DNA of 56,111 nt from Gemmatimonadales bacterium (GCA_035559335.1 DATMBH010000332.1:1-56111), one strand, 5' to 3'; shown: positions 1,390-48,797, counted from the stretch's first letter. The notes: generated by a model not told the origin, from the letters alone. Numbers and translations: made by a program.

Positions 1390-1884
1390 GTGTCGCTGGC
1401 CCGGATACCACTGGCGGCGGCGTTCGTTCTGGTACCCGATCCGAGGGTCAGAATACCGGTCCTTGCCACCGCTGCCGCCTCCGACCTGCTGGACGGGCTT
1501 CTGGCTAGGCGCTTCGGCCCCTCGCGGCTTGGGGCGGTTCTGGATCCCATAACGGACAAGGTCTTCATGCTGGCGGCCTTCGCCGCCGTCGGGCTTTCGG
1601 GCGCGCTGACGTGGCTGGAGATCCTGGGCGTGCTGTTGCGGGACATACTCACCCCGCTGGGGTATCTGGCTGGCGTAGTGGTTAAGCGCCCGTTTACCGT
1701 TCCGGCACGCGCCGGGGGGAAGATGGTCACTACCGGTCAGTCGCTGACGCTGTTCGCGTGGCTGGTGGGATCACGGTACCTGGAGCCGCTGGCGTGGGCG
1801 ACGGCGGCGATGGCGCTGTATGCGCTGGCTGACTACGGCCGGCTCGCGGTTCGCGCGGCCGGACACGACTCAAGGAGGAAGTGA
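1390..1884 (+). CDS. CDP-alcohol phosphatidyltransferase family protein
   Basis: The D-x2-DG-x2-AR-x8-G-x3-D-x3-D signature reads DLLDGLLARRFGPSRLGAVLDPITDK, and the protein is multi-TM and hydrophobic. The conserved N-terminal helix (AANLVSLARIPL) begins upstream of the first canonical start codon, so the 5' end is uncertain. Confidence 0.8.
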   Translation: MSLARIPLAAAFVLVPDPRVRIPVLATAAASDLLDGLLARRFGPSRLGAVLDPITDKVFMLAAFAAVGLSGALTWLEILGVLLRDILTPLGYLAGVVVKRPFTVPARAGGKMVTTGQSLTLFAWLVGSRYLEPLAWATAAMALYALADYGRLAVRAAGHDSRRK

Positions 1885-2417
1885 TGCTCCGAGCCCGACG
1901 GCTCGCACTACCGCTGCTGATCACGCTCGCCACCCCGCTCGCGGCGCAGGAATTCACTCCACCCGATCAGCGCACACCGCAGCCGGCTGCTACAGCCGGT
2001 GGTGGTGTGCGTTTCGGACTGCTGGGTTTCTCCACCAGAGGCGGCGGCCAGATCAATTCCGACGAGCAGGGAGTGGTAGGCTCCACGGTGGACATCGCGA
2101 CACTGGGCCATCCTCAGGTACGGCTCCGGCCGTCGTTCGAGGCGGGTGTCGGCGGCGGAGGCGCTCAGTCGCTGCACATCTCGCTCGAAGTCGTCTACCG
2201 GTTTCAACCGGAAGGCGCCGCGGCCATCCCGTACGTGGGCGCTGGCCTGGGCTGGTACGACACCAGCGCGCGCACCACTACCTGGCCTAACCTGGTGATG
2301 GGCTTCGAGCTGGCGTTCCGGCCCCAGTTCAACTGGCTAGTGGAGTATCACTCCCTCGACCGAATGGGCCGTCACCGGTTCCTGATCGGCCTCGCGACGC
2401 GATCGGGCGAACGCTGA
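1881..2417 (+). CDS. hypothetical secreted protein, possibly a small outer-membrane beta-barrel
   Basis: An AAGGAGGA RBS lies just upstream and the start overlaps the previous stop (GTGATG). Signal peptide MMLRARRLALPLLITLATPLAA|QEF. Gly-rich alternating pattern (GAGLGWYD). No recognisable family. Confidence 0.5.
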   Translation: MMLRARRLALPLLITLATPLAAQEFTPPDQRTPQPAATAGGGVRFGLLGFSTRGGGQINSDEQGVVGSTVDIATLGHPQVRLRPSFEAGVGGGGAQSLHISLEVVYRFQPEGAAAIPYVGAGLGWYDTSARTTTWPNLVMGFELAFRPQFNWLVEYHSLDRMGRHRFLIGLATRSGER

Positions 2418-2833
2418 TGGCGGCGCCGTTCAAGCAGGTGAGCGCCTCGTGGCTGGGGCGCTCGATGGTGTTTCGCGGCGAGGTGGCGGGTCGGCCGCCT
2501 GTCGTGATCGACGGCGAGACGGACGAGGGCCCCTCGCCGATGGACACGCTGTTGCTGGCCCTGGCCACGTGCTCAGGAAGTGACGTGGTGTTGATTCTGA
2601 AGAAGAAGCGGCTCGAGCTGCGGGACCTGCGCATCGAGGTTCGCGGCGAGCGACGCGAGGAAGAGCCGCGTCGCTTCCTCAGGATTAACCTTGTCTATCA
2701 CGTAGCAGCGCCTGGCGCCACAGAATCGGCCGTCAGGCAGGCCATTGACCTGTCGCTGGAGAAATACTGCTCGGTCGCCCACTCGCTGCAGCCGGACATC
2801 CGCCTGACTTATGAGCTTCATCTCCGGACCTAG
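2417..2833 (+). CDS. osmC: OsmC family peroxiredoxin-like protein
   Basis: Contains PSPMDTLLLALATCSGSDVVLILKK and LSLEKYCSVAHSL, the two conserved Cys motifs of OsmC/Ohr. The start overlaps the upstream stop (TGATG). Confidence 0.85.
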   Translation: MAAPFKQVSASWLGRSMVFRGEVAGRPPVVIDGETDEGPSPMDTLLLALATCSGSDVVLILKKKRLELRDLRIEVRGERREEEPRRFLRINLVYHVAAPGATESAVRQAIDLSLEKYCSVAHSLQPDIRLTYELHLRT

Positions 2834-3293
2834 GGTCCGGAGTTTGGCGCTGGTGGTCGCACTGATCGTCACTGCGACGCCGGCGCACTCCCAGGGCTGG
2901 CGCGAGTTCCAGGCCGGCGCCCTGGCCGTCGCTTCGCGGCCGGCATTCGGCGGCTTGGCGATTGGGCTCGGACTCCGGGACCGCGGCCGAACCAGGCTCT
3001 CGCTGCAGGTTGCGGGCGGCGCGTTCGACGAGGGCACTGCTGCCGGCCGAATCGAAGCCGTGTGGAACTTCCTTCTGGATCCGCAGCGCACCACTGGCGT
3101 GGCGATCTACGGTGGCGGTGGTGCGGCGCTGTCAACTCTGCGCGGCGGCAGGCTGCGTGGCTCGGTACTAGTCCTGCTAGGTCTGGAGAACCGGCCGGGC
3201 TCCCGCTCGAGCCGTTTCGTAGAAATCGGCGTCGGCGGAGGAGCCCGAATCGCCGCAGGCTTCAGATCACGGGTGCGACTGCCCCTCCGCTGA
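2811..3293 (+). CDS. hypothetical secreted Gly/Ala-rich protein
   Basis: Signal peptide ...LALVVALIVTATPAHS|QGW followed by Gly-rich beta-like repeats. It is followed by a clean hairpin terminator. No family recognised. Confidence 0.45.
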   Translation: MSFISGPRVRSLALVVALIVTATPAHSQGWREFQAGALAVASRPAFGGLAIGLGLRDRGRTRLSLQVAGGAFDEGTAAGRIEAVWNFLLDPQRTTGVAIYGGGGAALSTLRGGRLRGSVLVLLGLENRPGSRSSRFVEIGVGGGARIAAGFRSRVRLPLR

Positions 3294-4980: not shown

Positions 4981-5250
4981 ATGGCTGACGATGTATACGA
5001 ACCTGAACGGGTCGAGCGATTGAAGGAGATGCTGCGCGAACTGGCCCAGCGCCTAATCGTGCTCGATGCCGAAGGGCGACTGCTGGAAGACCCTGCTTCG
5101 CTGCTAAAGGCCCTCGGCGACGTGCGTGCCGAGCTGTTCCGGTTCGAGGTGCGCGCGACGTTCGACTCGCCTGACATCGCCCGGCACCGCCGCATTGTGG
5201 AGGAGGCGGAGGGCTGGGTACCTGAAGACAACGATGAGGAGGATGGATGA
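4981..5250 (+). CDS. hypothetical small acidic protein (89 aa)
   Basis: ATG at 4981 inside track ORF 4231-5250. MADDVYEPERVERLKEMLRELAQRLIVLDAEGRLL...VPEDNDEEDG is helical with an acidic tail. Its stop overlaps the DsbA-like start (ATGA). Confidence 0.5.
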   Translation: MADDVYEPERVERLKEMLRELAQRLIVLDAEGRLLEDPASLLKALGDVRAELFRFEVRATFDSPDIARHRRIVEEAEGWVPEDNDEEDG

Positions 5251-5942
5251 GTGGCAGTCGTTCCCTGACCCCGTTCTACATCGTGTTGGCGACTGTGGCG
5301 GTGGCGGGCGGTGTGTTCATCGCGCTCCAACTAGGGAAGGGGCCGCAGCGCCTAGCGCTGAGCACAGTGGGGATGCCGCCGGTGGCTGGCGAGCGGGGAG
5401 TTGTGATGGGCAGCGACAGCGCTCCGGTAGAGGTGCTGGAATTCAGCGATTTCGAGTGCCCGTACTGCGCCCGCTTCGCGGTGCTCACGCTTCCGGACGT
5501 AAAGAACCGGATGGTCGCCTCCGGCCAGGTGCGACTGCGGTTCGTGCACTTCCCGCTCGACATCCATGCCCAGGGACCCCACGCCCACTTGGCGGCGGCG
5601 TGCGCGAACGAGCAGGGGCGGTTCTGGGCGATGCACGACCTGCTGTTCGAGAACCAGGACGAGTGGGTGCGCTCAAGACGGCCGGACCGGGTGGCGGAGG
5701 GCTACGCCGAACGGCTCGGGCTGGACATGGGCCGGTTCCGCTCGTGCGTGCGCGAACAACGCGGCTGGTCGCAGGTGTTGGCGGACAGAGCGCTGGGTGA
5801 ATCGTTGCGCGTCGGGGGCACGCCCACGGTGTTCGTCAACGGGCGCCAGCTTTCCGATCCACCGTCGTTTGATCAACTGCGCCGGATCGTGGATTCGCTG
5901 GCGCAGCTCGCGCCCGCAGCGCCGGCCCCGGCGCGCCGCTGA
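5247..5942 (+). CDS. DsbA-family thiol:disulfide oxidoreductase, membrane anchored
   Basis: N-terminal TM helix followed by a thioredoxin fold with active site FECPYCARF. GTPTVFVNG is the cis-Pro loop region. Confidence 0.85.
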   Translation: MSGSRSLTPFYIVLATVAVAGGVFIALQLGKGPQRLALSTVGMPPVAGERGVVMGSDSAPVEVLEFSDFECPYCARFAVLTLPDVKNRMVASGQVRLRFVHFPLDIHAQGPHAHLAAACANEQGRFWAMHDLLFENQDEWVRSRRPDRVAEGYAERLGLDMGRFRSCVREQRGWSQVLADRALGESLRVGGTPTVFVNGRQLSDPPSFDQLRRIVDSLAQLAPAAPAPARR

Positions 5943-6391
5943 TGCGTCACCGCATGGCCGTGGCGGTTCTGGCACTGGCGGGGCTGCTGCTGTCGCTGTA
6001 CCTGACGCTGCACCGCCTGGGCCTCACCGGCCCGCTCACCTGCGGGGCCGACAACTCGTGCGACAAGGTGCAGTCGTCGGTGTACGCGGATTTTCTGGGG
6101 CTTCCGGTGGCGGCGTTCGGGGTTGGCGGTTACCTGGCGCTGCTGGTGGTGGCCCTGGTCGGACTCCAGCCCCGTTATGTGCAGCGCCGTGCACCAACCC
6201 TGCTGCTGGTGGGACTGAGTGCCCTGGGCGTCGGGTTCACGGCATACCTCAAGTACCTCGAGATCTTCAAGATCGGGGCGATCTGTAGGTGGTGCCTGGT
6301 GAGCGCCATACTGATCACGGCCATACTGATCGTGAGTGGAGCGGGGATGAGAGGGCAGAGCGCAGAGGGCGGAGGGCAAAGTGGTGGCTAG
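5942..6391 (+). CDS. vitamin K epoxide reductase (VKOR) family protein
   Basis: Four-TM protein with a loop Cys pair (TCGADNSC) and a CRWC redox motif in the last helix. Its start abuts the DsbA stop (TGATG). Confidence 0.85.
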   Translation: MRHRMAVAVLALAGLLLSLYLTLHRLGLTGPLTCGADNSCDKVQSSVYADFLGLPVAAFGVGGYLALLVVALVGLQPRYVQRRAPTLLLVGLSALGVGFTAYLKYLEIFKIGAICRWCLVSAILITAILIVSGAGMRGQSAEGGGQSGG

Positions 6392-23313: not shown

Positions 23314-26300
23314 ATGGCATCGAAGCTCTTCCGGCGAATGGCTCGGGCGGTGTTCCTGCTCGGCGGCGTGGCCCTGATTGCCGCGTCGTCGGCGGAGGCC
23401 GCGCGGCCAGTGCGGCGGACCACGCGGCCGGCTGCGGCGCGTGGCTTCAACCTGTTCGCTGGCGCGGTGAACGTTCTGATGAACGTGAACCGGGTCCAGT
23501 GCAACGTGAACAACATCGGCGAAAGCTGCGTGGACCCGACCAACAGCCCGGTCGTGGGCGGCGGCTTCTGGCCGAAGGGCAGCCCGAACCAGTACATCTT
23601 CAACTCCGGCCTCCAGGTCGCAGCCATCATCCCTGGTAGCGACCAACCGGGCTTCACGTGGCCGGGGGACACGGTTGGAGCGTTCTTCTTCGACCCCCGC
23701 GGCGACCAGGCGCACGGCGAAGGCCGCACCAACGTGTTCAACGGCCTCTCGGCCGCGGACCTGGCCGAGTGGCCCAGCGCCGCGTATGTCCGGGACACGA
23801 CCCTGTTCAACGCCGCGCTGATCGGGCGGCGCACCGTGTCGCAGCAGGACCTGTGGACCAGGTTCTGGGACGGCAACCCGAACCTTTCGGCCGGCCGCCA
23901 GCACTCGATGGGAATCCTGGTCGAGCAGCGCGCTCTGGCGTGGAACTTCCCCTCGGGCAACCAGGACATCGTGTACTTCCTGTACCGGTTCATCAACATC
24001 ACGGCGCGTGATGCCTCCCGGTACGCGAACCTGGCCAACTACGGCTATACGCAGGCTGATATTAACGAGATCGTCGCGATCGCCAACGAGTGGCAGGACC
24101 GCGCCGAGGCAGCCTACAACGTCCAGATCCCGGACACCGGCTTCGCGTGGACCAACATGTACGCGGCCTTCGCGCAGGACCCGGACGTCGGGCAGGCGGG
24201 GCAGAACTACTCCAATGCGATTCTGCCGTTCAACATCGCCATGGCCTACAAGTCGGACTTTCGCGAGCCGACCTGGCAGTTCCCGCCTGACATCAACGGC
24301 GCCCCGTTCGCGCCGGCCCCGGGCTTCGAGGGCGTGAAGTACCTCGCCAGCCCGAACAACATCGGCATCGCCATGTCGGGCAACACCACCAACGGCGCGC
24401 CGTTCCCGGACGCGGTTGGTGTGCAGCGGCTGTGGCGCAACCTGTCGGGAAACCTGCTTCCAGCCGACGGCACCTGCTCGGTCTCTAACCCGCAGGCTCG
24501 CAGGTTCTGCTTCTGGGCGCAGGTGCCGGCTGACACCCGGTTCTTCGAGTCTTCCGGCCCGTTCAGCCTGGGTCCGGGAGAGTCCGCCGTGATCGTGGTG
24601 GCGTACGTCCACGCCGCGCCGGTGCAGAGCTACCCCGGCATGGGTACCTACAGCCTAACGCCGTTCATCGGCGGCAACATGGTTCCCGGCTTCGCCATCG
24701 AGGGTTCACGTTTGGTGGCGGGCACGGACACGCTGCGGGCGGTGGACCGCGCCGCCGGCTGGATCAACCATAGCGACGTCAACGGCGACGGCACCATCAC
24801 GCAGGATGAAGTGACGACCGTGCCGCGTTCGCTGCTCAACAAGTCGCTGGTGGCGCAGGCCGTGTTCGATGCGCGGTTCCTGCTGCCGTTCGCGCCCGAG
24901 GTGCCGGAGTTCTACCTCGTGGCGGGCGATAACGAGGTGACCATCGCGTGGACCCGTAGCGTCACCGAGACCGTCGGCGATCCGTTCTTCGCGGTGGCCT
25001 CGGATGTGACCAACGCGCTATACGATCCGAACTTCCGCGAGTTCGACGTGGAAGGCTACCGGATCTGGCGCGGCCGGAGCCAGGCGCAGATGGAGATGAT
25101 CGCCTCGTTCGACTACAGCGGCACGACCATCACGGACTACACGGGCCAGTTCTGGACCAGCGACTACGGCAACCAGTGCGCGCCCGAGCTTGGCATCACT
25201 ACAACCTGCCCGGTCGCGTTCAACCCGAACGGCTCGGGTCCAACCTGGGACATCCCGCTTTCGGGTGACATCATTCAGATCCCGCCCGGCGGCAGGGTGC
25301 AGCTGGCTAACGGGACGATCTACCACGTAACGGCCGATACGGTGTCGGGACTCAATGACACCGGCGTGCCGTTCGCGTTCACCGATCGCAGCGTCCGCAA
25401 CGGGTTCCGCTACTTCTACGCGGTCACGGCGGTTGACGTGAACAGCGTTAAGTCGGGCCCCAGCTCGCTCGAGTCGCCGCTGGTCACCAAGACGGTGACG
25501 CCGCGGGCGCCCAGCTCGAACAACCAGCCGGCGGTGTTCATCACCGGCATGTTCGGCGACAACGGCGCCACCCAGCTCGATCCCTCGGCGGAGTTCCCGA
25601 GGATAGACCCGGACAACGGCACGTTCAGCGGCCCGATTCCGCCGGTCAACAACGTTGACTACGGGTTCCTGTCGTTCGTGGCGGAGGCGTTGCCCACCGG
25701 CGACTTCATCGCGCGGATTGACTCGCTGGTCGCCGGCTTTACGGGCGGCATCGGCACCCACCCGCAGCTGTACGTGTCGTTCATCGCGGGCGCCGACACG
25801 TTCCGGACCAGCTTCGACATAAACCCGCCGGACTTCAACGCGCAGCCGACTGTCGTGAATGAGTTCGAGGGCGGTTTGGCGCTGGTGCCGTTCGACGTTC
25901 AGCGTGCTCAGGCCGTGGGCATCTCGGCGGCCTTTGCTCAGTCCTCGCGAATGCCGGTGCTGTTTACCGGACGCACCTCGGCACTCTCGAACACGCCTTC
26001 GGTGACGCTTACCCAGGGACGCTTCGGTATCGGCGGGCAGGCCAGCCGTTACCTGATGCGGTCCCGGTGGTTCGAGGGCAACTCGGAGCCGGCGGACCCG
26101 ACCATCAACTTCAACGCCTCTGCCGCAAACACCGCGGGTCAGCTTACCGGGGTGACGCGGATATGGGCACCGCAGTCGTATCGGCAGCCCACGGCTAACG
26201 TGAACCTGCTGTTCCGCGGCTACGGCTACGCGCTAGCTAGCTGGTATCCGGCCGACTTCGTGGTCACGTGGGGGGCGGGCGGTACCGTTACGGTGCGAGA

Positions 26301-27162
26301 CTCGACCCACCGTGTGAACCTGCCGTTCCGTCGCGATCTCGGCGCCGGCTATGGGTTCCTGAACATGTCCGCTCTGGCGGCGGCTGGAGTAACGGCCGGC
26401 GAACTAGCTGACGGCACGGGTAGCCCGAACATGACGACAGCTAGCTATCACGCGCTGTACGCAATCGCGCCGGTCTGCACCCCGGACTGGTGGGATATCA
26501 CCTGTGCTCCGCTACAGAGCAGCGCAGCAATCCAGCCGCTCGATGTGACCGGCGACGGCGTTGCTGATGGTAACGGCATCGTGTTCGTGATCAACGGCGA
26601 AGCGTGGTGGATGGAGATGAGTTCGCTTCCGGCCGCGGGCACGGTGTGGCGCCTGAGGGCAGTTGGCGGCGCAGGTCTGACGGCCACCTGCACTCCAGCG
26701 CTACCGGCGGGCACTGGTTTCTACAGCACGCCTCCGACCGACTGCTCCAACTACAACTACGTTCCGGCCACCAGCACCCGGACCGGCTACCCACCGGGGC
26801 TGCAGTATGTGATCCGCGTGACTCAGGGCTTCCAGATCGCTTCCAATTCGGGCGACCTGAGCCGGATTCACACGGTACCGGATCCGTACTACGTGACCAA
26901 CCAGCTGGAGATCACGGCGAACACCAAGGTGCTCCGGTTCGTAAACCTGCCGGACCGCGCGGTGATCCGTATCTACAGTACCAGCGGAATCCTGGTGAAC
27001 GTCCTGAATCACAATGATCCGGCGGGCGGCGGTGAGCTGGTGTGGAACCTCCGCAACCGCAACAACCAGTTCGTGGCGAGCGGCGTGTACTTCTATCACG
27101 TCGAGACGCCTGACGGCCGGGAGAAAATCGGCCGGTTCACGGTGGTCAACTTCGCCCAGTAA
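23314..27162 (+). CDS. 1282-aa secreted orphan protein with T9SS-type (Por_Secre_tail / FlgD-Ig-like) C-terminal sorting domain
   Basis: Signal peptide MASKLFRRMARAVFLLGGVALIAASSAEA. Internal FN3-like segment (EFYLVAGDNEVTIAWTR...EGYRIWRGRS...FRYFYAVTAVDVNS). Ca-binding-like DVNGDGTITQDE. The last ~90 aa, VPDPYYVTNQ...AVIRIYSTSGILVNVL...LVWNLRNRNNQFVASGVYFYHVETPDGREKIGRFTVV, match the T9SS CTD pattern. No catalytic motif seen. Confidence 0.85.
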   Translation: MASKLFRRMARAVFLLGGVALIAASSAEAARPVRRTTRPAAARGFNLFAGAVNVLMNVNRVQCNVNNIGESCVDPTNSPVVGGGFWPKGSPNQYIFNSGLQVAAIIPGSDQPGFTWPGDTVGAFFFDPRGDQAHGEGRTNVFNGLSAADLAEWPSAAYVRDTTLFNAALIGRRTVSQQDLWTRFWDGNPNLSAGRQHSMGILVEQRALAWNFPSGNQDIVYFLYRFINITARDASRYANLANYGYTQADINEIVAIANEWQDRAEAAYNVQIPDTGFAWTNMYAAFAQDPDVGQAGQNYSNAILPFNIAMAYKSDFREPTWQFPPDINGAPFAPAPGFEGVKYLASPNNIGIAMSGNTTNGAPFPDAVGVQRLWRNLSGNLLPADGTCSVSNPQARRFCFWAQVPADTRFFESSGPFSLGPGESAVIVVAYVHAAPVQSYPGMGTYSLTPFIGGNMVPGFAIEGSRLVAGTDTLRAVDRAAGWINHSDVNGDGTITQDEVTTVPRSLLNKSLVAQAVFDARFLLPFAPEVPEFYLVAGDNEVTIAWTRSVTETVGDPFFAVASDVTNALYDPNFREFDVEGYRIWRGRSQAQMEMIASFDYSGTTITDYTGQFWTSDYGNQCAPELGITTTCPVAFNPNGSGPTWDIPLSGDIIQIPPGGRVQLANGTIYHVTADTVSGLNDTGVPFAFTDRSVRNGFRYFYAVTAVDVNSVKSGPSSLESPLVTKTVTPRAPSSNNQPAVFITGMFGDNGATQLDPSAEFPRIDPDNGTFSGPIPPVNNVDYGFLSFVAEALPTGDFIARIDSLVAGFTGGIGTHPQLYVSFIAGADTFRTSFDINPPDFNAQPTVVNEFEGGLALVPFDVQRAQAVGISAAFAQSSRMPVLFTGRTSALSNTPSVTLTQGRFGIGGQASRYLMRSRWFEGNSEPADPTINFNASAANTAGQLTGVTRIWAPQSYRQPTANVNLLFRGYGYALASWYPADFVVTWGAGGTVTVRDSTHRVNLPFRRDLGAGYGFLNMSALAAAGVTAGELADGTGSPNMTTASYHALYAIAPVCTPDWWDITCAPLQSSAAIQPLDVTGDGVADGNGIVFVINGEAWWMEMSSLPAAGTVWRLRAVGGAGLTATCTPALPAGTGFYSTPPTDCSNYNYVPATSTRTGYPPGLQYVIRVTQGFQIASNSGDLSRIHTVPDPYYVTNQLEITANTKVLRFVNLPDRAVIRIYSTSGILVNVLNHNDPAGGGELVWNLRNRNNQFVASGVYFYHVETPDGREKIGRFTVVNFAQ

Positions 27163-27169
27163 CTGACCC

Positions 27170-27195: not shown

Positions 27196-27208
27196 ACGGA
27201 GGCCTGAC

Positions 27209-28354
27209 ATGCGCAACCGTTCAGTAATGATCGCCCTCGGCCTGCTGGTGGCCGGAACGAGCGCCGCCCGCGCGCAGGGGGTGATTCGCCAGATCGAGTC
27301 CGACAACACCGCCTACGGCACCACGGCGGCGGAATTCCTGCTGGTGCCCGCCTCGGCACGAGGCGCAGCGCTGGGTGGCGGGTTCGCCGCCATCGTGACC
27401 GACGTCTCGTCGGTGCACTACAACCCCGCCGGACTGGCGCTGATGCCGCGGCCCGGACTGCTGGCCTCGCAGATGAACTACGTGGCCGACACCAGGTATA
27501 GCTGGCTCGCGATCGGCATGCCGTTCAGTGGTGGCTCGAGAGCCATAGGACTCTCGGTCACCAACTTCGGCTTCAGCGACCAGCCGGTGTACACGGTCGA
27601 GGACCCGCAGGGTGAGCTGGGCGAGGTGTACTCGGTCTCCCAGACCGCGCTTGGGTTCACTTACTCGCAGCAGTTCTCGGACCGCTTCTCGGCGGGCATG
27701 ACTTTTAAGTTCATCAACGACCGGCTGGGCGATGTGGTTGGTCGCGCCTTCGCGGTCGACTTCGGTACTAGCTTCCGCGCCTCGGTGGGTGGGAGGCCGA
27801 TCCGGGCGGCGTTCGTGATCCAGAACCTCGGTTCCAGCCTTCGTCACGAGGGCTCGGCGCTCGATGTGCTGGTGAACCGCGAGCCCCCGCTGGATCAGCA
27901 GGACGTCCCGCAGGAGCCGGCGCGGGCGCGGCTAAGCACGAAGGAGTGGTCGCTCCCGGTGATCTTCCGGGTGTCGATGGCATACGACCTGTTCGCCACC
28001 CAGTCGAGCCGGTTCTCCGTGCTGGGCGAGTTCACGCAGCCCAACAACACCGAGCCGGCCGTAAACTTCGCCGGGGAGTACTCCATGAACCTCGGCGGTT
28101 CCGGGTTCCAGCTGGCGGGCCGTCTGGGCTGGACTACGCAGCCTGACAACAACCTGGATCCGGCCGGTCCCAGCAGTCCCAATTACGCGGGATTCGAGTC
28201 CACCGTGAGTGACGGTTCCGACGGCCTGTCGGCCGGCGGCGGGCTGAGGTGGCAACGCGACCCGCGTGGCATCGGCATCTCGTTCGACTATGCCTACCGG
28301 CACCTGGGTGTACTGGGGTCGGTCAACATGATCACTGTCGGGCTGAACTGGTAG
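27209..28354 (+). CDS. porV: PorV/PorQ-family outer-membrane protein
   Basis: Signal peptide ...GTSAARA|QGV. GTTAAEFLLVPASARGAALGGGFAAIVTDVSSVHYNPAGLA is the conserved N-terminal PorV/PorQ signature. The sequence has beta-strand periodicity and ends ...ITVGLNW. Confidence 0.75.
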   Translation: MRNRSVMIALGLLVAGTSAARAQGVIRQIESDNTAYGTTAAEFLLVPASARGAALGGGFAAIVTDVSSVHYNPAGLALMPRPGLLASQMNYVADTRYSWLAIGMPFSGGSRAIGLSVTNFGFSDQPVYTVEDPQGELGEVYSVSQTALGFTYSQQFSDRFSAGMTFKFINDRLGDVVGRAFAVDFGTSFRASVGGRPIRAAFVIQNLGSSLRHEGSALDVLVNREPPLDQQDVPQEPARARLSTKEWSLPVIFRVSMAYDLFATQSSRFSVLGEFTQPNNTEPAVNFAGEYSMNLGGSGFQLAGRLGWTTQPDNNLDPAGPSSPNYAGFESTVSDGSDGLSAGGGLRWQRDPRGIGISFDYAYRHLGVLGSVNMITVGLNW

Positions 28355-28371
28355 CCTGATATCTAAGCGGA

Positions 28372-28399: not shown

Positions 28400-28404
28400 C
28401 ACGA

Positions 28405-29829
28405 ATGAGACGACGTCGTTGGATGGGCTGGATGCTGGGCGCCGTGGCGGCCCTGGCATCGGCGGGGAAGGCGGGGGGTCAGGATGCCCCCCTAACTGTG
28501 GCGACGCTGCGGTTCTACAGCCCGGCTAGCGCCACGACGACAATCGAAGGGGTTTGTGAGCTGAGACCGGGCGAGCTGTTCGCTCACCGAGGTCGCAGCG
28601 GGCGGTACCGGTTCTCGGTCGCGGTGTTGGACAGCGCAGGCCTGGAGCTTCAGCGCGGCGAGTGGTCGCGGGAAGTGCCGGCCACGGTGTTGGCGACGCG
28701 TGGGGCAACTGTGGCGGAGTCATTCCGACTCCCGCCGATGGCGCCCGGACGCTACCGCGTTGTGGTCAGGGTGCAGCCCGACGGCGGCAATCCAATCGAG
28801 CGTGAGGCCGAGGTCAGGGCCTGGGCCCAGCGACCGGCCATCAGCGATTTGCTGGTGGCGACCGCGGTGCGGATGGCCGCGTCGGATTCGGATGCTGCGA
28901 CGGCGGGTGAAGTTCGCCGGGGAAGCATGTTGCTGCGCAGCGCCCCGGTGCCCAGCCTGACGCCGACAGACGCCGTGCTGTACTACTACGCGGAGTTGTA
29001 TCCGCGCGGCGTCGAGACGATGACCGGAGAGCTGCGGGCAGAGGTGATCTCGGGCACGCGTACGATAGTCGCCACGCCGCCGAGGCCCGTGCAGGTCGCG
29101 GCGCAGGGCGGCGTCACGCGAGGCCAGTTGGACCTGACCGGGCTGCCTGAAGGCAACTATGTGCTGCGGCTTCGGGTTCGCTTGGGCGACAGCACCGTTA
29201 CCGCGGAAGCCAGGTTCGCGATGGCTGGTGTGGCGGCGCTCGCTGCCGCAGCTCCGCCACCGAGCCGCAGGGCGGCTGAGGAGTTCTTCGCCGAAGCGGA
29301 CGAAGCGCGGCTCGACTCGCTCCAGGCGCCGATAGTGTACTTGGAGCAGGATCAGGAGCGAGGCGTCTATCAGAACCTGACGCTGGAGGGCAAGCGGCGC
29401 TTTCTGGTGGAGTTCTGGAACCGGCGCGATCCGACGCCGGAAACGCCTGACAACACGGCCCTGGTCGAGTTCTATCGCGCCGTGACGTATGTGAACGAGT
29501 CGTTTCGGGAGGGTGGTGCCGGGCAGGTGCCCGGCTGGCGGACCGACAGAGGGCGCATCTATTTGCGCAACGGCCGCCCCGACGAGGTCCACCGGCGTCC
29601 CGCCGCCTCTCCCCGGCCGTTCGAGGTGTGGAAATTCACGCGGGATAGAAACCGCTACTACGTGTTTGTGGATCAGTCGGGGTTCGGTCACTACGTGTTG
29701 TTGGGTACTAACGACCGGCAGGAAGTGACGCAGCAGGAGTGGGAAAGGGTGCTGGGGCCTGAGAGTGCGCAGGAGGTTTACCGCATCCTTGGGATCGAGA
29801 GCACTCGCCTGAGAGATCGCAATCGGTAG
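28405..29829 (+). CDS. GWxTD domain-containing secreted protein
   Basis: The C-terminal domain carries the eponymous motif (VPGWRTDRGRIYLRNGRPDEV...PFEVWKF...YYVFVDQSGFGHYVL). An N-terminal signal peptide is present. Confidence 0.85.
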   Translation: MRRRRWMGWMLGAVAALASAGKAGGQDAPLTVATLRFYSPASATTTIEGVCELRPGELFAHRGRSGRYRFSVAVLDSAGLELQRGEWSREVPATVLATRGATVAESFRLPPMAPGRYRVVVRVQPDGGNPIEREAEVRAWAQRPAISDLLVATAVRMAASDSDAATAGEVRRGSMLLRSAPVPSLTPTDAVLYYYAELYPRGVETMTGELRAEVISGTRTIVATPPRPVQVAAQGGVTRGQLDLTGLPEGNYVLRLRVRLGDSTVTAEARFAMAGVAALAAAAPPPSRRAAEEFFAEADEARLDSLQAPIVYLEQDQERGVYQNLTLEGKRRFLVEFWNRRDPTPETPDNTALVEFYRAVTYVNESFREGGAGQVPGWRTDRGRIYLRNGRPDEVHRRPAASPRPFEVWKFTRDRNRYYVFVDQSGFGHYVLLGTNDRQEVTQQEWERVLGPESAQEVYRILGIESTRLRDRNR

Positions 29830-29860
29830 GGATCACGCGTTTTACTGAGCGAGGGGGATC

Positions 29861-31561
29861 ATGAAGCGTCATCGTAAGTCTGGTCTGGCCGCGGCCGCAC
29901 TAATCGTGCTTGGGGCCGCCGCGTGCTTCGACGACCCGACGAGCTCGTTGCGGGAAGGGCCGGCTGCGCTGGCACTGAACCGTACTTCGGTTACTGTGCG
30001 GTATGGTGACAGCACCGCGGTCGAGGCAATCCTGCGCGACGCACAGGGCAACCCGCTGTCACCGACTGGGATCACCTGGTCCACGGCAGATCCCACCATC
30101 GCCGTGGTCAACGTAGACGAGGCGCGCCCCATTCCCGGTCAGGCGTACGCCCGCGCATTCGTGCGCGGCGTGTCCGCTATCGGCGGGATCACAACCGTCA
30201 CGGTGACCACTCAGGGGCAGAGCGCCAGCTTCCGGGTGCTGGTGCTGCCAGCCACGTTCACCGGGGCCACCTCGGTGGTCGGCACGGCCGTTGCTGACAC
30301 GATCGTGACCAACACACCCTCCGGTCCGGTGTCGTCGTTCATCACTGCGGGTGAGACGCTTACGGTTCAGGTACCGGCGACCTATGTGTTCGACCCGGCG
30401 GCCTCCGGCGTCTTTTTCGGCCCGAACAGCGCCTACATCATCTCCCGCGACAGTTTCACCATCAAGGCGATGGCGCGCTATCCATACGCGGGCAAGGCAC
30501 GGATCACCAACCTGCGCTTCCGCGGGAACTCCGAAACTGGAGTTGTAGACATCGCCAGTCTCGAAACGGACAGCATTGCCATAGCGAGGGCGAGGTTCCG
30601 GGGCACCGTCGCCGTGGCCGCGAGCGCGTTCGGTCCGAACACACAGATGACTGTGACGGCTCCAGCGGGTGTCAGTTTCAGTTCATCGTCGCAGGTCCGG
30701 CTTGGCTCCACGACTGCCATTCGTCTTTCGCAGAGCGCGACCCAGCTGGTGGTGATATCGGCCACGGCCTACACCGGCACGATCATGGTGACCAATGCGA
30801 CCGTTGGTACCGGGACGATTGACTCGCTTCGCTCGATGGCTAGCTCCACGATCAACGCCTCGTTCTTCCCCGGAACGGTGACTAACGGAGCGGGCAACTA
30901 CCTCGACACGATCGTGGTGCGGTGCAACGGATTGTGCACATTCCGCACGGCAACGACGGCGCCCGGACCTTCGCAGGTAACTGTGAACGGGGCGCAGGCT
31001 TTCTTGGTACAGCGCACCGCCGACAGCATGAAGGTGATCGCTTCGCGGCCCGGAACGGGACCCGTCACCGTGAGCAACGTAATAGTTTCGGGGACGACGA
31101 TCCCATCGCTCAGCACCTCGGGGACAATCACCGTGAGCACCACGCCTGGTGATCCCACCGAGCCGGCGAACAATACTCCGGGTGGCACCACTATCACGCT
31201 GACCGGCACGACATCAGCGAACCCGCTCGTGATATACGGGACGATTGACGACGGTACGGGCGCCGGCGATGTGGATGACTTCTACACGTTCAGCTCGGTA
31301 GCCGGCGACACGGTGGTGATCCAGCTGACGTTCGCGGGCACGGGTGCCGGCGGCGCGACCAACCCGGATATCGACCTGCTGGCGTGCAACGCCGCATGCA
31401 ACGCATTCGTCGGCGGCTTCGGCGGCGCGACTGCGGGCAACCCGGAGAACCTCACGCTCAACTTCCCGCCGCTTGCGGACGGGACGTATCACATCTACGT
31501 GAACGGCTGGGACACAGGTGGATTGACCTACTCGTATCGCCTGTCGGTGTACATACGCTAG
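29861..31561 (+). CDS. lipoprotein with bacterial Ig-like (Big_2) and C-terminal pre-peptidase (PPC)-like domains
   Basis: Lipobox-like LIVLGAAAC. Big_2-like LALNRTSVTVRYGDSTAVEAILRDAQGNPLSPTGITWSTADPTIAVV. PPC-like DVDDFYTFSSVAGDTVVIQL...DIDLL...GTYHIYVNGWD. Confidence 0.75.
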   Translation: MKRHRKSGLAAAALIVLGAAACFDDPTSSLREGPAALALNRTSVTVRYGDSTAVEAILRDAQGNPLSPTGITWSTADPTIAVVNVDEARPIPGQAYARAFVRGVSAIGGITTVTVTTQGQSASFRVLVLPATFTGATSVVGTAVADTIVTNTPSGPVSSFITAGETLTVQVPATYVFDPAASGVFFGPNSAYIISRDSFTIKAMARYPYAGKARITNLRFRGNSETGVVDIASLETDSIAIARARFRGTVAVAASAFGPNTQMTVTAPAGVSFSSSSQVRLGSTTAIRLSQSATQLVVISATAYTGTIMVTNATVGTGTIDSLRSMASSTINASFFPGTVTNGAGNYLDTIVVRCNGLCTFRTATTAPGPSQVTVNGAQAFLVQRTADSMKVIASRPGTGPVTVSNVIVSGTTIPSLSTSGTITVSTTPGDPTEPANNTPGGTTITLTGTTSANPLVIYGTIDDGTGAGDVDDFYTFSSVAGDTVVIQLTFAGTGAGGATNPDIDLLACNAACNAFVGGFGGATAGNPENLTLNFPPLADGTYHIYVNGWDTGGLTYSYRLSVYIR

Positions 31562-35709: not shown

Positions 35710-35714
35710 GGGCC

Positions 35715-41811: not shown

Positions 41812-44800
41812 GTGACGCGCAGGCTCGCTGTAACCTTCCTCCTGGCCGGTCTGACGGCCTCGCGTGCCCTGGCCCAGGGCCCTGAGGAGCCATTCGGCAT
41901 CCGCGTCGCCCGGCTTCGCGCTGACAGCCTGGTTCTGGAGGTCCCTGCGGCCTTCGAGGGCTCCGGACGGCTGGCCTGGCCCCGCCGTCCAGCCGCTGTG
42001 CTGGCGGATGAGTGGATGCGCAGGCTCACCGCGAGACTGGAGGCGCGGGCGGCCCGGCGCTGGAGCGCGCTGCTGCTCGGCGACTCGTCGCTGCTGGTGG
42101 CTCCACCCCGTGCGGATCTGGCGGGTGTTCCGGCACTCATCGCTCCGGCCCTGGAACCCGACCGGCAGCCGCTCAGCCTGATCGCGGAGTACGCGCAGCT
42201 GGGGATGCAGGTGAACTCGCGACTGGAACTCAGAATGGAACGGTTCCGCAACGAGCGCTGCACCTCGGCAGACGCGACGCGCCTGTCCCAAGGCTGCCGC
42301 GGCGGGTTCAACGCGCCGCGTCTGGAGCCGCAGTTCACCGTGCGGGCGGGCGGCCTGGTTGGCCAGCGACTGCACGTGAACGTGGACTACGACTCGGAAC
42401 GCGAGTTCCAGACTTCGAACAACGTTAACGTGTACTACCAGGGTCTCGAGGACGAGATCCTGCGTCGGGTCGAAGTCGGAAACGTGACGTTCGCCCCGCC
42501 GGCCTCGCGCTTCATCACTGCTGGCATTCCATCCAACAACTTCGGTGTCCGGGTCGAGGCCCAGTTGGGCGCGCTCGAGCTGTCCGGAATCTTCGCTCAG
42601 CAGCAGGGGAATGTGGTGCGGGGGCGTACGTTTACCATCGGTGACCGCACCGTGCTGCCGGTCGAGCGGGAACTCCAGGACCGCGACTTCGAGCCGTTGC
42701 GCTTCTTCTTCGTGATCGACCCCGCCCTGCTGCCCGGATATCCTGCGGTGGACCCGCTGGGCCTGTCGGCCACAGCCCTCCCGGCGAGCCAGCAGCTGGT
42801 GCAGGTGCGGGCCTACCGGCGGCGCAGCACGGCCAATCGCCCGCAGGCCGAGCAGGCGTTGACAGGCATCGAGGCAGTGGCGGTGCGCGACGACTCGCCG
42901 CAGCGGGCGGGCCCCTTCACGTGGGAAGCGCTGATCGAGGGCCGCGACTTCTATCTCGATCCGTCGGGCCTATGGCTCGCCCTGGTGGCGCGGCTGGATC
43001 CGGAGGATTTCCTGGCGGTGTCGTACGTCACAGCGGCAGGGGATACCGTCGGCACGTTCCCCGCGGTCGGCACCGCCGGGCGCGTGGACACCCTGGTGTT
43101 GATCCACGAACCACGCCGAGGCACTGAAGTCCCGACGTTCCGTCACGAGATGCGGAACGCATACCGCGTGGGGGCCACGGATGATGTGGTGCGCGAGTCG
43201 GCCACGCTGCGGATCACGGTTGCAGAAGCCGAGCGCCCCACCGGCAGCAATGTGACCTTTCTGCAGTTGACCGGCGTTGCCCTTTCGAGCGACGGGACTC
43301 GGTTCGACCAGTACAACCGGATGTTCCCGCGGGAGCGCGACCCGGGCGGCGGCCAGCCGCTGCGCGACATGTTCGTGGTGTTTCCCCACCTGACGCCGTT
43401 CGCCGACGCCGCTCTGGCGCCGGAGTTCCGCAACGACTCGCTGTACCGCACACCCACCTACCTGCTGCGGACGCAGGGGCCCACGCCGTTGTATTCGCTG
43501 CGGATGGGCTACGACTCGCGGGGCGGCGATGACCGGCGGATCCTGTCGCTAGGGGGCTTCCAGATTCGGGCGGGGAGCGAGCGCATAACGGCGGGGGGCC
43601 GCGCGCTGACGCGCGGAGTGGACTACACCATGAACTACGAGGTCGGGCAGGTAACGTTTCTGAACCCCGACTCGTTGTTTCCGCAGCCGACCACGGTAGT
43701 CGTGCAGTACGAGGAGAACCCGGCCTTCGCGATCGCGCCCACGTCGCTGTACGGACTGCAAGCGCGCTACGACCTGGGCGACCACGGCGCCATCACCGCG
43801 ACCGGACTGTTGCAACGAGAGCGCACACTGTTCACCCGCCCGCCGCTCGGCTTCGAGCCGTCGTCCAACGCGGTCGGGGGCGTCAGTGCCGCGCTGGTGT
43901 TCGAGCCGACACGCCTGACGCGGCTGCTGGACGCGTTGCCGCTGGTGACGGCCAGCGCTCCCTCCCGGATCAACCTCGACGCGGAGCTAGCGGTGTCGCG
44001 GCCGTCTCCCAACCAGCTGGGTGTGGCGTACGTCGAAACCTTTGAATCCGAGGGTGGCCTGTTTCTGCCGTTAGGCGAGGACCTGTGGGAGTACGGGAGC
44101 AGGCCGTCCTCCGGCCGCGGCGCCGCGGCTGCCGGCATTGACCCGGTGCTCGGTTTCAGCGACGCCGACGCGGTGCTGCTGACGTGGCAGAACCTGATCC
44201 CCAGCGCCGACGGCAACGTGTTTACGCTGGTCCCCAGGGAGATCGACCCCGCGATCGTCACGCAGGGTACCGGCGATCAGGCTGAAACGGTGATGTGGAT
44301 GGCGCTCCACCCGGACACGGTGGGCGGCAACCTGGACCCGGTGAGCTTCCGGCAGCGGTGGCTGCTGCCCCACACTCCAGGGCCGCGCTGGCGGTCCATC
44401 ACGCTGCCGCTCAATGCCACTGGCCTCGACCTGTCCCGGGTCGAATTCCTGGAGTTCTGGGTGCTCGAAGACGACGAGCGGCGGGCCCGCAACGCTGGGC
44501 TGACGATGGTGCTCGATTTCGGCACCGTGTACGAGGACGCGGTGGACTTCCTGCCCACAGGATTCCGGGTCAGCGGCCGGGACACGACTTACAGCGGCCG
44601 CCGCCGGGCGGGCGAGGGCCGGCTCGACACCGAGCGTGATACCCTCACCAACGCGTTCAACGCGCTCACCAGCGACGTGGGGATCCTCGGCGACGTTGCG
44701 GACTCGATAGTCAATCTGGACACCGGCCAACGTGTCGACAGTCTTGCCCTGTGTCGCTCCGAGCTGTCGCGGGCACTGGTGGTGTACTCGTGGGGTTCGC

Positions 44801-47800: not shown

Positions 47801-47904
47801 TCAGCAACGTGGTCACCGAGGACCGCCACATCAACCGCAAGTTCTCGCAGTTCGTGATCACGGGCTCGGTGCGGATCGCGATCTCGGCCGGGGAGCTACG
47901 ATGA
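41812..47904 (+). CDS. sprA: SprA/Sov-like type IX secretion translocon (2030 aa)
   Basis: Signal peptide MTRRLAVTFLLAGLTASRALA|QGP. The N-terminal block VNVYYQGLEDEILRRVEVGNVTFAPPASRFITAGIPSNNFGVRVEAQLGALELSGIFAQQQGN matches the conserved SprA N-terminal motif. Giant beta-rich protein. Confidence 0.8.
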   Translation: MTRRLAVTFLLAGLTASRALAQGPEEPFGIRVARLRADSLVLEVPAAFEGSGRLAWPRRPAAVLADEWMRRLTARLEARAARRWSALLLGDSSLLVAPPRADLAGVPALIAPALEPDRQPLSLIAEYAQLGMQVNSRLELRMERFRNERCTSADATRLSQGCRGGFNAPRLEPQFTVRAGGLVGQRLHVNVDYDSEREFQTSNNVNVYYQGLEDEILRRVEVGNVTFAPPASRFITAGIPSNNFGVRVEAQLGALELSGIFAQQQGNVVRGRTFTIGDRTVLPVERELQDRDFEPLRFFFVIDPALLPGYPAVDPLGLSATALPASQQLVQVRAYRRRSTANRPQAEQALTGIEAVAVRDDSPQRAGPFTWEALIEGRDFYLDPSGLWLALVARLDPEDFLAVSYVTAAGDTVGTFPAVGTAGRVDTLVLIHEPRRGTEVPTFRHEMRNAYRVGATDDVVRESATLRITVAEAERPTGSNVTFLQLTGVALSSDGTRFDQYNRMFPRERDPGGGQPLRDMFVVFPHLTPFADAALAPEFRNDSLYRTPTYLLRTQGPTPLYSLRMGYDSRGGDDRRILSLGGFQIRAGSERITAGGRALTRGVDYTMNYEVGQVTFLNPDSLFPQPTTVVVQYEENPAFAIAPTSLYGLQARYDLGDHGAITATGLLQRERTLFTRPPLGFEPSSNAVGGVSAALVFEPTRLTRLLDALPLVTASAPSRINLDAELAVSRPSPNQLGVAYVETFESEGGLFLPLGEDLWEYGSRPSSGRGAAAAGIDPVLGFSDADAVLLTWQNLIPSADGNVFTLVPREIDPAIVTQGTGDQAETVMWMALHPDTVGGNLDPVSFRQRWLLPHTPGPRWRSITLPLNATGLDLSRVEFLEFWVLEDDERRARNAGLTMVLDFGTVYEDAVDFLPTGFRVSGRDTTYSGRRRAGEGRLDTERDTLTNAFNALTSDVGILGDVADSIVNLDTGQRVDSLALCRSELSRALVVYSWGSPSPHCTRRNGRADTEDLNNDQRLDSLVTGQGENFFRYVFPVGDQRFFVREGGQIPGLGRWRLYRIPFRTDTIQVGLPNVRQIQALRLTIAVPQAAAESTLFFALARMKLVGAPWVKRSGTPIAGLSGSRGQGHGEVIASVVSTENRADLGYEPPPGVTDQGSQAGGGFNVGAVQINERSLRLIASDVRVGERAEAFYRFPEGERNFLGYRQLRVWARGRGAGWNERHLAFYVKVAQDENNFYLYRAHASTVTWEPEAVVDIGTWLRLRAEVETRWLRGEGPSGAALCGGDSLAYVACSGPYLVHVRNPGVAPPNLARVQELAVGFVRDSGAATDSAELWVNDVRLTGVVDDAGYAGAVSLRVAASDIADLQLQLSRRDPNFRQLGDEPSYIGQNQFAVASAIRLERFGLERLGLAAPLSLRFERAGEDPFYLNRSDVLAEGLQGLRRPRTDASSVLLTLRRTRRGNAWWQRALVDNVTLSASWQSADATTTLSQSSTRLSDYRADYNLTLGNRSFTLLPGFVRDLLGSLPGFMRRSQLVRGLMDSRLRWTPVQVQLVSGLTRGEVERSTYRVPVETEADTARLINTTTAALRTSARIDTRPFQSLQLGAELSSERDLRDYGDTTTVAAVASQSRQRFLGADVGFERARTLSTRMSYAPDVSSWLRPRFGYTSTFGLARDPNAATPERTEGDSAGAFRLPTAFSTARSTDVTLSADPSRLLRLLFGDSGAVRRLLDRLGQVDAGRRVDTRAQFNRAGSDPGVAFQTGLVGLGALLVHNGQLASAATEVTQDRISGSLRLPLNVQVTSAYAERRARAWNARQGVQLGQVATETDWPNVSIRWNYSPSRGAIRSVLSNISASAGTRLRESVSEVQAPGGGAPLRSATESRAVPLSLSVTWALRITTSVTLSGERARTERSGSLTLSDRDQLTATASFAFRFPQEYVPLRSDVRTSLRYSHSANTGCVARAGTPGCVPISDSRRTEYVLIMDTDMPPNVTAGLSISNVVTEDRHINRKFSQFVITGSVRIAISAGELR

Positions 47905-48797
47905 GATTCGCGCTCCGGCTCACGGCGGCGGCCGTGGCGGCAGCGGCGTGTCGGCACGGCTCCTCCGCCGCCCAGCAGTTCGACGGGCGCCAGGCGCTGA
48001 GCTGGGTGGAGCACCAGGTGGCCGCCGGTCCGCGAGTGCCTAACACCGAGGCTCACCGGGTTATCGGCGACTGGCTGGTCGCTGAACTGCGCTCGCGGGC
48101 CGACACCGTCGAGGTGCAGGAATTCACGCACGTGACACTCGACGGCGACACGCTCCGGCTGCGCAACATCATCGCCCGGTTCCGGCCCTCGGACCCGACG
48201 CGGATCCTGTACGTGTCGCATTGGGACAGCCGCCCGATGGCTGAGCACGACCCCAATCCGGCCAACCGCAACCGGGCGATTCCTGGCGCCAACGACGGGG
48301 CCTCCAGCACGGCGCTGCTGCTGGGCGTGGCGGACGCGTTGCGCAGGCGACCTCCACCTGTGGGTGTGGACCTGCTGTTCACCGACGGTGAGGACTACGG
48401 GTCGGATTTCAGCGGCCCCGACGTACTGCTCGGAGCGCGCCACTTCGCGCGCAACCTCCCGCCCGGCTACCAGCCCGCGTTCGGAGTGGTCTGGGACATG
48501 GTGGGAGCGCCGGAGCAGCGCTTCAGCCAGGAAGGCTACTCGTTGGAGCGTGCGCCTGAGGTTGTAGATCGCGTCTGGTCGCGCGCCCGGGAACTGGGCC
48601 TTGCTCGCTGGTTCCCAGCCACCAACGGCGGGGCGATCACCGATGACCACGTGCCGCTGCTGGAGGCCGGCCTGCGGGTGATCGACGTGATAGGCTATCC
48701 CTACGAACACCATCACACCCTGGCCGACACTCCAGACAAGGTTTCGGCCGAGGCGCTGGCCAGGGTGGGAAGGTTGGCGTTGGCGCTGATCTACTAG
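47901..48797 (+). CDS. M28-family metallopeptidase-fold lipoprotein (glutaminyl-cyclase-like or aminopeptidase)
   Basis: Lipobox-like AAVAAAAC. M28 core YVSHWDSRP, GANDGASSTALLLGVA, FTDGEDYG. The ATG overlaps the sprA stop (ATGA). Confidence 0.75.
   Translation: MRFALRLTAAAVAAAACRHGSSAAQQFDGRQALSWVEHQVAAGPRVPNTEAHRVIGDWLVAELRSRADTVEVQEFTHVTLDGDTLRLRNIIARFRPSDPTRILYVSHWDSRPMAEHDPNPANRNRAIPGANDGASSTALLLGVADALRRRPPPVGVDLLFTDGEDYGSDFSGPDVLLGARHFARNLPPGYQPAFGVVWDMVGAPEQRFSQEGYSLERAPEVVDRVWSRARELGLARWFPATNGGAITDDHVPLLEAGLRVIDVIGYPYEHHHTLADTPDKVSAEALARVGRLALALIY

Follow-up and report, generated by a model that had tools for sequence, protein, structure and literature searches.

We report that the member of Gemmatimonadota represented by a 56,111-nucleotide stretch of DNA (Gemmatimonadales bacterium, GCA_035559335.1 DATMBH010000332.1:1-56111; the whole of this stretch is called the window) probably runs the same Q-rule pathway that has been described for Bacteroidetes, with glutamine (Gln) as the first residue of the mature protein (+1) in most substrates of signal peptidase I (SPase I) and a candidate glutaminyl cyclase (QC), a lipoprotein of 298 amino acids (aa), encoded directly behind the sprA gene. 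In the proposed pathway, Sec-exported proteins would be cut by SPase I after a small-x-small motif, the new N-terminus would be Gln in most substrates, and the Zn-dependent type II cyclase, predicted to be anchored in the inner membrane, on its periplasmic side, by a lipid-modified Cys17, would turn this Gln into pyroglutamate and ammonia. The blocked N-terminus would then shield periplasmic, outer-membrane, and secreted proteins from aminopeptidases; resistance of a pyroglutamate N-terminus to aminopeptidases has been shown in Porphyromonas gingivalis (PMC5837995; PMC10653852). For Gemmatimonadota, we infer the exact cleavage positions, the cyclisation, and the protective role.

An earlier note on this DNA, made from the sequence alone, had proposed that the rule operates here outside Bacteroidota, and the placement of the host bears this out: Gemmatimonadales belong to Gemmatimonadota, a separate phylum within the Fibrobacteres-Chlorobi-Bacteroidetes (FCB) group, and both the nearest homologues and the genome loci agree. 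At E <= 1e-20, the search with the cyclase gave 5332 relatives, of which the top 120 share 62-86% identity with it, the named ones being from Gemmatimonadetes/Gemmatimonadales, while a scan with one genome per species gave 80 loci, comprising 77 from Gemmatimonadota (2 of them Longimicrobiia), 1 from Chlorobiaceae, and 2 from Bacteroidota.

To locate cleavage sites, we used a home-made scorer that considers only positions -3 and -1 and how far the site lies from the hydrophobic core, and that disallows Pro at +1, the identity of the +1 residue being otherwise unseen. Upon translation, the seven Gln codons listed in the earlier note are all present in the contexts described, every one of them CAG (Table 1; an arrow marks the predicted cut, and proteins are referred to by gene start). 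The observation of the note is confirmed: five of the seven Gln residues lie behind a canonical small-x-small motif, and for the other two, in the 2811 and 28405 proteins, the site is ambiguous. The Gln site was ranked first by the blind scorer in four proteins (1881, 19993, 27209, and 41812). For the 35894 barrel, the first version of the scorer chose an internal start, and the protein is missing from the list of the second version; when its start was tested directly, SLG↓QG came second, behind a site within the hydrophobic core. The 1282-aa protein is the one clear exception, with AEA↓ARP (23401-23403), as the note had described, and its lack of Gln is conserved in close orthologues: in L110 and L109 (loci and contigs carry L numbers), Thr replaces the window Ala before a conserved RPVRR, and an upstream DA↓Q option is also present in L109. 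Also as described, both lipoproteins have Cys at +1 (codons 29924-29926 and 47949-47951), and the one with the PPC domain (29861), a signal peptidase II substrate, falls outside the rule. No further convincing SPase I substrates were found in the window; the DsbA-like (5247) and ComEA-like (48856) proteins look like uncleaved membrane anchors. Because the background frequency of Gln is only 3.5%, giving P(at least 4 of 8) = 9e-5, the enrichment in the window is unlikely to have arisen by chance, and against the rate in the negative controls introduced below, the probability of at least 6 of 8 proteins having an acceptable site followed by Gln is 0.003.

Conservation among orthologues was then compared protein by protein. 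An acceptable small-x-small site followed by Gln is present in 25 of 28 SprA proteins, behind divergent signal peptides (e.g., ARA↓QDP, ALA↓QQP, VTA↓QPP, and AGA↓QSP), and small-x-small↓Q occurs in 15 of the 18 PorV/PorQ-family orthologues that have a complete N-terminus. In orthologues of the 19993 barrel (L109, L112, L114, L115, L117, L118, and L121), the spacing between Gln and a GKI.G motif is constant, and orthologues of the 35894 barrel read ATA↓QGV (L054 and L077), VEA↓QVT (L006), and IRA↓QGV (L059) with the same spacing to the conserved domain, which supports SLG↓Q as the probable cleavage site of the 35894 protein. The closest orthologues of the GWxTD protein (L107-L109) retain Gln 5-7 residues upstream of a PLTV/PLAV motif, and the residue preceding this Gln, G in the window, is non-canonical in the orthologues (R, W/Q); either cleavage of this protein would be non-canonical or its Gln would not be the mature N-terminus. 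The lipobox of the PPC-domain lipoprotein is likewise kept in L108 and L109. Separately, in three low-GC metagenome contigs with homologues of the PorV family or resembling TonB-dependent receptors (L116, L122, and L127), Gly or Ser was seen at +1 (LYA↓GDE, AWA↓SGA, and LWA↓GTT), and some lineages with PorV-like proteins seem not to follow the Q-rule.

The comparison of +1 Gln with background that the earlier note had called for was run with the home-made scorer on approximately 1.8 Mb of Gemmatimonadota sequence, made up of the window, 77 related loci (1.0 Mb), and 700 kb of a megaplasmid of the cultured Gemmatirosa kalamazoonensis (14 x 50 kb taken from the 1.1-Mb plasmid), the last being independent of window synteny. 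As negative controls, we used 10 x 50 kb of high-GC proteobacterial replicons, namely, the Ralstonia GMI1000 megaplasmid and Sinorhizobium meliloti pSymB; a plasmid of Hymenobacter canadensis (Bacteroidota; 58-63% G+C) served as the positive control. The final scorer took the first passing start, applied a Rossmann filter and a transmembrane filter, and banned Pro at +1; Gemmatimonadota and negative controls were counted per protein family and Hymenobacter per protein, at signal-peptide scores from >=6 to >=8.5. Across this range, the share of Gemmatimonadota families with Gln at the blind top site rose from 33% to 69%, and the share with an acceptable site followed by Gln rose from 52% to 81%, whereas the corresponding figures for the negative controls went from 16% to 10% and from 23% to 20% (Fisher p = 0.0006-0.005 for Gemmatimonadota versus controls by the acceptable-site measure). 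In Hymenobacter, the two measures rose from 35% to 67% and from 50% to 83%, and the Gln share of Gemmatimonadota is indistinguishable from that of this positive control. In the positional profile, the fraction of Gln at +1 was 0.48-0.51 in Gemmatimonadota and 0.47 in Hymenobacter versus 0.20 in the negative controls, while flanking positions were mostly at or below 0.12, with a maximum of 0.16 at +2/+3/+5 in Gemmatirosa and Hymenobacter. By this home-made scorer, judged against its controls, most SPase I substrates would carry Gln at +1. Altogether, the results agree with the proposal that the same rule operates here, as the enrichment is also present in independent Gemmatimonadota sequence, at positive-control strength and well above proteobacteria.

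Three earlier measures were set aside. The first version of the scorer, which took the best alternative start, gave many false positives, including ComEA-like anchors ("Y" at +1), a major facilitator superfamily transporter ("P"), LepB, and Rossmann folds. A re-estimate of +1 Gln by expectation-maximization, 0.39-0.43 in Gemmatimonadota versus 0.18 in controls, was not relied on, as false positives dilute both figures, and the score-stratified family counts were used instead. The measure "any Gln within 14 residues past the hydrophobic core" was dropped for poor discrimination (62% versus 51%). As a separate observation, segments of the Ralstonia GMI1000 megaplasmid (L089-L092 and L101-L104) had approximately 20% Gln at the predicted +1 versus approximately 4% background; organisms beyond the FCB group thus also show a slight preference for Gln, which fits the "continuum" of Bochtler et al.

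We next considered the enzyme. In a phmmer search against the PDB, the best matches of the 298-aa protein were 6QRO (TfQC of Tannerella forsythia; 7e-59), 3TC8 (Parabacteroides BDI_3547; 4e-58), and 6QQL and 7CJE (PgQC; approximately 3e-55), with the QC of Bacteroides thetaiotaomicron (BtQC) also among the best solved relatives; animal QCs followed at approximately 1e-12, and the best aminopeptidase, YwaD, at 9e-6. Identity to the solved Bacteroidota structures is 37-38%. An AlphaFold2 model of the protein had a predicted local distance difference test score of 91.2, and the top 50 Foldseek matches of the model in the PDB were all QCs: those of Bacteroidota (3TC8, 6QRO, 7D1E, and 6QQL) aligned with template modeling (TM) scores of 0.85-0.89 and root mean square deviations of 1.8-2.4 Å, followed by the enzymes of Fimbriiglobus (TM 0.84), Acidobacteriales (TM 0.79), and animals (TM 0.71-0.76). 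The suggestion that this M28 lipoprotein is the candidate cyclase is thus strengthened, since its best matches in sequence and fold are the characterised PgQC, TfQC, and BtQC and not aminopeptidases, and judged by alignment and predicted structure, the protein is an orthologue of the characterised type II glutaminyl cyclases of Bacteroidota.

Residue roles established for PgQC (PMC7948796) were transferred through pairwise alignments. D132-G133 corresponds to PgQC D149-G150, the bridging Asp and the residue after it; E164-D165 to E182-D183, the catalytic Glu and the Bacteroidota-specific Asp ligand; D199 to D218, the catalytic Asp; and H272, the Zn-ligand His, to the WHT-motif His in the TfQC/PdQC alignments, which we equate with PgQC H299. 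By alignment, the predicted Zn ligands are D132, D165, and H272, and the predicted catalytic residues are E164 and D199. The mapped active-site residues, a D248-D249-H250 motif, and the lipobox Cys17 are all invariant in 40 Gemmatimonadota homologues, and the signal peptide with AAA↓C predicts a periplasm-facing lipoprotein. Among database names of homologues, several in IMG read glutaminyl-peptide cyclotransferase. It was also observed that the lipobox Cys of the cyclase is followed by S-x-A-Q-x-F-D-G (SSAA↓QQFDG in the window; 47901-47990) and that in the L002 cyclase, where the Cys lies within the hydrophobic region, the scorer places SPase I cleavage at SAA↓QAPAFDG; by sequence, some cyclase homologues may be soluble Q-rule substrates themselves.

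The position of the cyclase gene raises the best-surviving alternative, namely, that the enzyme is specialised, co-transcribed with sprA, and serves the cell's type IX secretion system (T9SS) and outer-membrane machinery, pyroglutamate being a sorting or assembly signal and not a general protection. The term "translationally coupled" used in the earlier note can be taken literally, as the cyclase ATG and the sprA TGA share the ATGA at 47901-47904, with GGGAG a few bases upstream of the cyclase ATG. In 63 of the 73 loci with enough upstream sequence, an sprA homologue ends at most 400 bp upstream of the cyclase, within a conserved block of barrel-LptG/LptF(-)-SprA-QC-ComEA-PilB-PilT-PilC, and the Gln sites in the window are mostly on outer-membrane barrels, PorV, and SprA. 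On the other hand, in Gemmatimonadota loci without sprA at this place (e.g., L006, L054, and L077), the cyclase comes immediately after the divergent LptF/LptG genes, with ComEA-PilB-PilT-PilC still behind it, so the adjacency may be inherited synteny; the sole candidate T9SS cargo in the window, the 1282-aa protein, is the exception without Gln; +1 Gln on the Gemmatirosa plasmid is spread over varied small proteins; and experiments in P. gingivalis argued against a role in T9SS targeting (PMC5837995). Weighing these points, we consider a specialised cyclase unlikely. The adjacency could reflect inherited synteny, a functional operon, or both, and no sprA-cyclase neighbourhood was present in the three Bacteroidota/Chlorobiaceae loci compared; the conserved overlap of sprA and the QC gene is a new genomic link of the cyclase with the T9SS translocon.

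A second alternative sees in the M28 protein an ordinary di-zinc aminopeptidase of the periplasm, or a protein with some other role; the Gln preference would then be a matter of signal peptidase specificity, and any pyroglutamate would form spontaneously. In its favour, the Pfam call is just "Peptidase_M28", homologues are named "M28 family peptidase" at NCBI, some aromatic residues of the PgQC pocket are lacking, and the five di-zinc ligand positions (H107, D132, D165, D199, and H272) are all present. The earlier note had offered conservation of the second metal site as the distinguishing check; this proved uninformative, since the five di-zinc residues are likewise complete in genuine type II QCs, human QC binding one zinc despite the full set (PMC11312887). 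The discriminating position is the one that follows the bridging Asp: aminopeptidases have Asp (Asp/Asn) there, human QC has Ser, and PgQC has Gly, a difference linked to loss of the second zinc (PMC11312887; PMC7948796). At this position, the window protein has G133, an invariant Gly that matches PgQC; moreover, its E-D pair is the Bacteroidota-specific QC signature, and QCs match it better than aminopeptidases by approximately 50 orders of magnitude in E-value. An aminopeptidase is, accordingly, a quite improbable identity for this protein.

Several points weigh against a Q-rule pathway in this organism. The window sample consists of 8 substrates, two of them with ambiguous sites: the 2811 protein gives a near-tie, AHS↓Q scoring 4.2 versus 4.4 for VTA↓T (VTA↓TPA), and in the 28405 protein, AGG↓Q ranks third, behind ASA↓GK. 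The scorer is noisy, with many false positives (anchors and cytoplasmic proteins), and absolute Q-values are rough underestimates because the candidate set includes such proteins; the argument therefore rests on the comparison with controls, of which the proteobacterial ones still have approximately 20% Gln at +1. Much of the added Gemmatimonadota sequence is syntenic with the window, the Gemmatirosa plasmid being the independent part. In the cyclase, the equivalent of PgW193 is absent across the Gemmatimonadota family, the position being a gap or aliphatic, and the window protein has His271 (48711-48713; HHHT) versus Trp in PgQC (W298) and in at least 90% of Gemmatimonadota homologues, at a substrate-pocket position where TfQC/PdQC read WHT in the alignments; a 7-residue deletion precedes the Zn-ligand His, and the PgF294 region falls inside it. 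Our literature search also found no published pyroglutamate, proteomic, or enzymatic data for Gemmatimonadota. A final alternative, that Ala-rich c-regions offer several small-x-small sites, from which those preceding Gln were picked with no real preference behind them, draws on the non-Gln top ranks in the 2811 and 28405 proteins, the behaviour of the 35894 start, and the many proteins with 2-4 acceptable sites, but it has largely been refuted already and is extremely unlikely, as Gln is still the commonest +1 residue when +1 is unscored, its share grows with signal-peptide confidence, its peak is limited to +1, identically processed controls reach 10-20%, and orthologues retain Gln despite diverging signal peptides. 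Our preferred reading remains the Q-rule pathway with the 298-aa lipoprotein as its cyclase.

The features of the window are collected in Table 1. Genes were called with guidance from G+C content at third codon positions and annotated with Pfam and NCBIfam. The window, approximately 56 kb at 65-70% G+C, contains a block of envelope genes, the remaining genes being housekeeping; Rfam and ARAGORN scans found no RNA genes in it.

Table 1. Coordinates of the exported, outer-membrane, and neighbouring gene products of the window, with predicted cleavage sites and +1 Gln codons
Feature	Position	Strand	Predicted cleavage	+1 Gln codon	Annotation
178-aa exported protein	1881..2417	+	LAA↓QEF	1947-1949	No Pfam family
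160-aa exported protein	2811..3293	+	AHS↓QGW, ambiguous site	2892-2894	No Pfam family
TonB-dependent-receptor-like outer-membrane barrel, 1085 aa	19993..23250	+	ALA↓QTG	20083-20085	Pfam CarboxypepD_reg + Plug; C-terminal Phe
1282-aa protein, weak T9SS C-terminal sorting domain	23314..27162	+	AEA↓ARP
PorV/PorQ-family outer-membrane protein	27209..28354	+	ARA↓QGV	27275-27277	NF033709, 140 bits (cut-off 90); C-terminal Trp
GWxTD-domain protein	28405..29829	+	AGG↓QDA, ambiguous site	28480-28482	TIGR04514, 2.3e-24
Lipoprotein with C-terminal PPC domain	29861..31561	+	AAA↓C (lipobox)		Cys codon 29924-29926
Outer-membrane beta-barrel, 1059 aa	35894..39073	+	SLG↓QGV	35993-35995	CarboxypepD_reg + OMP_b-brl_4, Pfam 1.8e-61; C-terminal Phe
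Divergent LptG + LptF genes	upstream of sprA				Window annotation
SprA/Sov, T9SS outer-membrane translocon, 2030 aa	41812..47904	+	ALA↓QGP	41875-41877	TIGR04189, 3.8e-165, 552 bits (cut-off 200)
Putative type II (M28-fold) glutaminyl cyclase lipoprotein, 298 aa	47901..48797	+	AAA↓C17		PF04389, 1.8e-28
ComEA-like protein (48856), PilB/PilT/PilC, two-component pair	3' of cyclase gene

The C-terminal residues of the three barrel-type proteins (F in 19993, W in 27209, and F in 35894) match the usual outer-membrane signature. Both T9SS components of the window, SprA/Sov and the PorV-family shuttle protein, score above their NCBIfam cut-offs, while the cargo C-terminal domain of the 1282-aa protein (Por_Secre_tail) reaches 20.1 bits, below the 23-bit cut-off. 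None of PorK/L/M/N was seen in the window, where no search aimed at them was made. The 1282-aa protein is without a Pfam domain, its sole matches being at a PorZ-like/Por_Secre_tail C-terminus, and the T9SS-like cluster at 19993-31561 (barrel, 1282-aa protein, PorV/PorQ, GWxTD, and PPC lipoprotein) is syntenic in metagenome contigs (L108, L109, and L112-L115). Elsewhere in the window, at 5247-6391, a DsbA-like membrane-anchored thioredoxin is followed directly by a VKOR homologue, with stop and start adjacent at 5942; the pair is a VKOR-type periplasmic disulfide-bond system, not DsbB. On Gemmatirosa plasmid 1, three gene products with identical N-termini recur, with order and spacing kept, at a distance of approximately 53 kb (L081 22599-24293 and L082 25659-27353), which points to a large duplication within the megaplasmid.

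The same rule in Gemmatimonadota of soil and freshwater, together with a lipoprotein cyclase orthologous to the known ones, would widen the phyletic range of the system and would argue for an origin predating the split of the phyla, or for joint transfer of enzyme and rule; an explanation specific to the proteolytic oral and gut niche would be weakened. It is conceivable, though rather doubtful, that Bacteroidetes did not invent the Q-rule and its cyclase and that both date back further in the FCB group, with a genetic wiring to outer-membrane and T9SS biogenesis; if this were true, the coupling to sprA would hint that pyroglutamate, besides giving protection against aminopeptidases, plays a part in how outer-membrane and secreted proteins are assembled or quality-controlled. 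For annotation of Gemmatimonadota, cleavage would be expected to precede Gln, and "M28 family peptidase" would here mean a glutaminyl cyclase. Cultivable non-pathogens such as Gemmatimonas and Gemmatirosa would offer a system for asking what purpose pyroglutamylation of an entire secretome serves. As a mechanism this is not new, and outliers within the FCB group have been noted before; the extension to a phylum and the coupling of sprA with the cyclase are new.

The closest known system is the Q-rule of Bacteroidetes with PgQC (PG2157 of P. gingivalis), TfQC, PiQC, BtQC, and PdQC (PMC5837995; PMC7948796, Taudte 2021; PMC10653852). The rule was stated to occur "exclusively in the Bacteroidetes phylum" and ascribed to a proteolytic oral/gut lifestyle (PMC10653852, Szczesniak 2023), and the published SignalP Q-values of Bacteroidetes are >48%, with a mean of 71% (Bochtler 2018, PMC5837995). 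That survey covered Bacteroidetes, Chlorobi, Spirochaetes, Chlamydiae, and Cyanobacteria and noted high Q-values in a few FCB species outside Bacteroidetes (77% in Ignavibacterium album and 55% in Chloroherpeton); Gemmatimonadetes are unmentioned in the parts of its text and supplements that we looked at (PMC5837995). Our literature search found no paper linking a glutaminyl cyclase with Gemmatimonad*, and most of the T9SS papers found call the system Bacteroidetes-specific, Abby et al. 2016 having found none outside the phylum.

Like Bacteroidetes, the Gemmatimonadota studied here begin most of their SPase I-processed proteins with Gln, with an apparent frequency equal to that of the Bacteroidota control, and have a cyclase that co-occurs with T9SS genes. 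Like the PgQC group, the putative enzyme has a single M28-fold domain of approximately 300 aa with a lipobox Cys; its predicted Zn ligands are Asp/Asp/His, it shows the E-D pair specific to Bacteroidota, and its bridging Asp is followed by Gly. They differ in the host, which does not fit the claimed restriction to Bacteroidetes; in gene order, as the cyclase overlaps the sprA stop in most Gemmatimonadales loci, unlike in the three Bacteroidota/Chlorobiaceae loci; and in the pocket, where the PgW193 equivalent is missing, the deletion precedes the Zn His, and PgW298 is replaced by His in the window protein. Animal type II QCs (human QPCT/QPCTL, Drosophila, and Ixodes) share the fold and the catalytic Glu/Asp/single-Zn arrangement predicted here, but their third ligand is Glu (Asp here) and Ser follows the bridging Asp (Gly here), and the substrates of these soluble or Golgi-resident enzymes are hormones and chemokines rather than an entire secretome. 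The di-zinc M28 aminopeptidases (Aeromonas/Vibrio AAP, Streptomyces griseus SgAP, and Bacillus YwaD) nominally share the fold and the five metal positions but have Asp/Asn after the bridging Asp and E-E in place of E-D, and the nearest relatives here are cyclases. M28-type cyclases are also known outside Bacteroidota from Fimbriiglobus ruber (7D1B) and an Acidobacteriales bacterium (7D18); these are more distant than the Bacteroidota enzymes, and we found no reports of a Q-rule in their hosts. Altogether, what we describe is best seen as a known system in a phylum where it was unreported, rather than as one of a new kind, and a published generalisation is contradicted by it.

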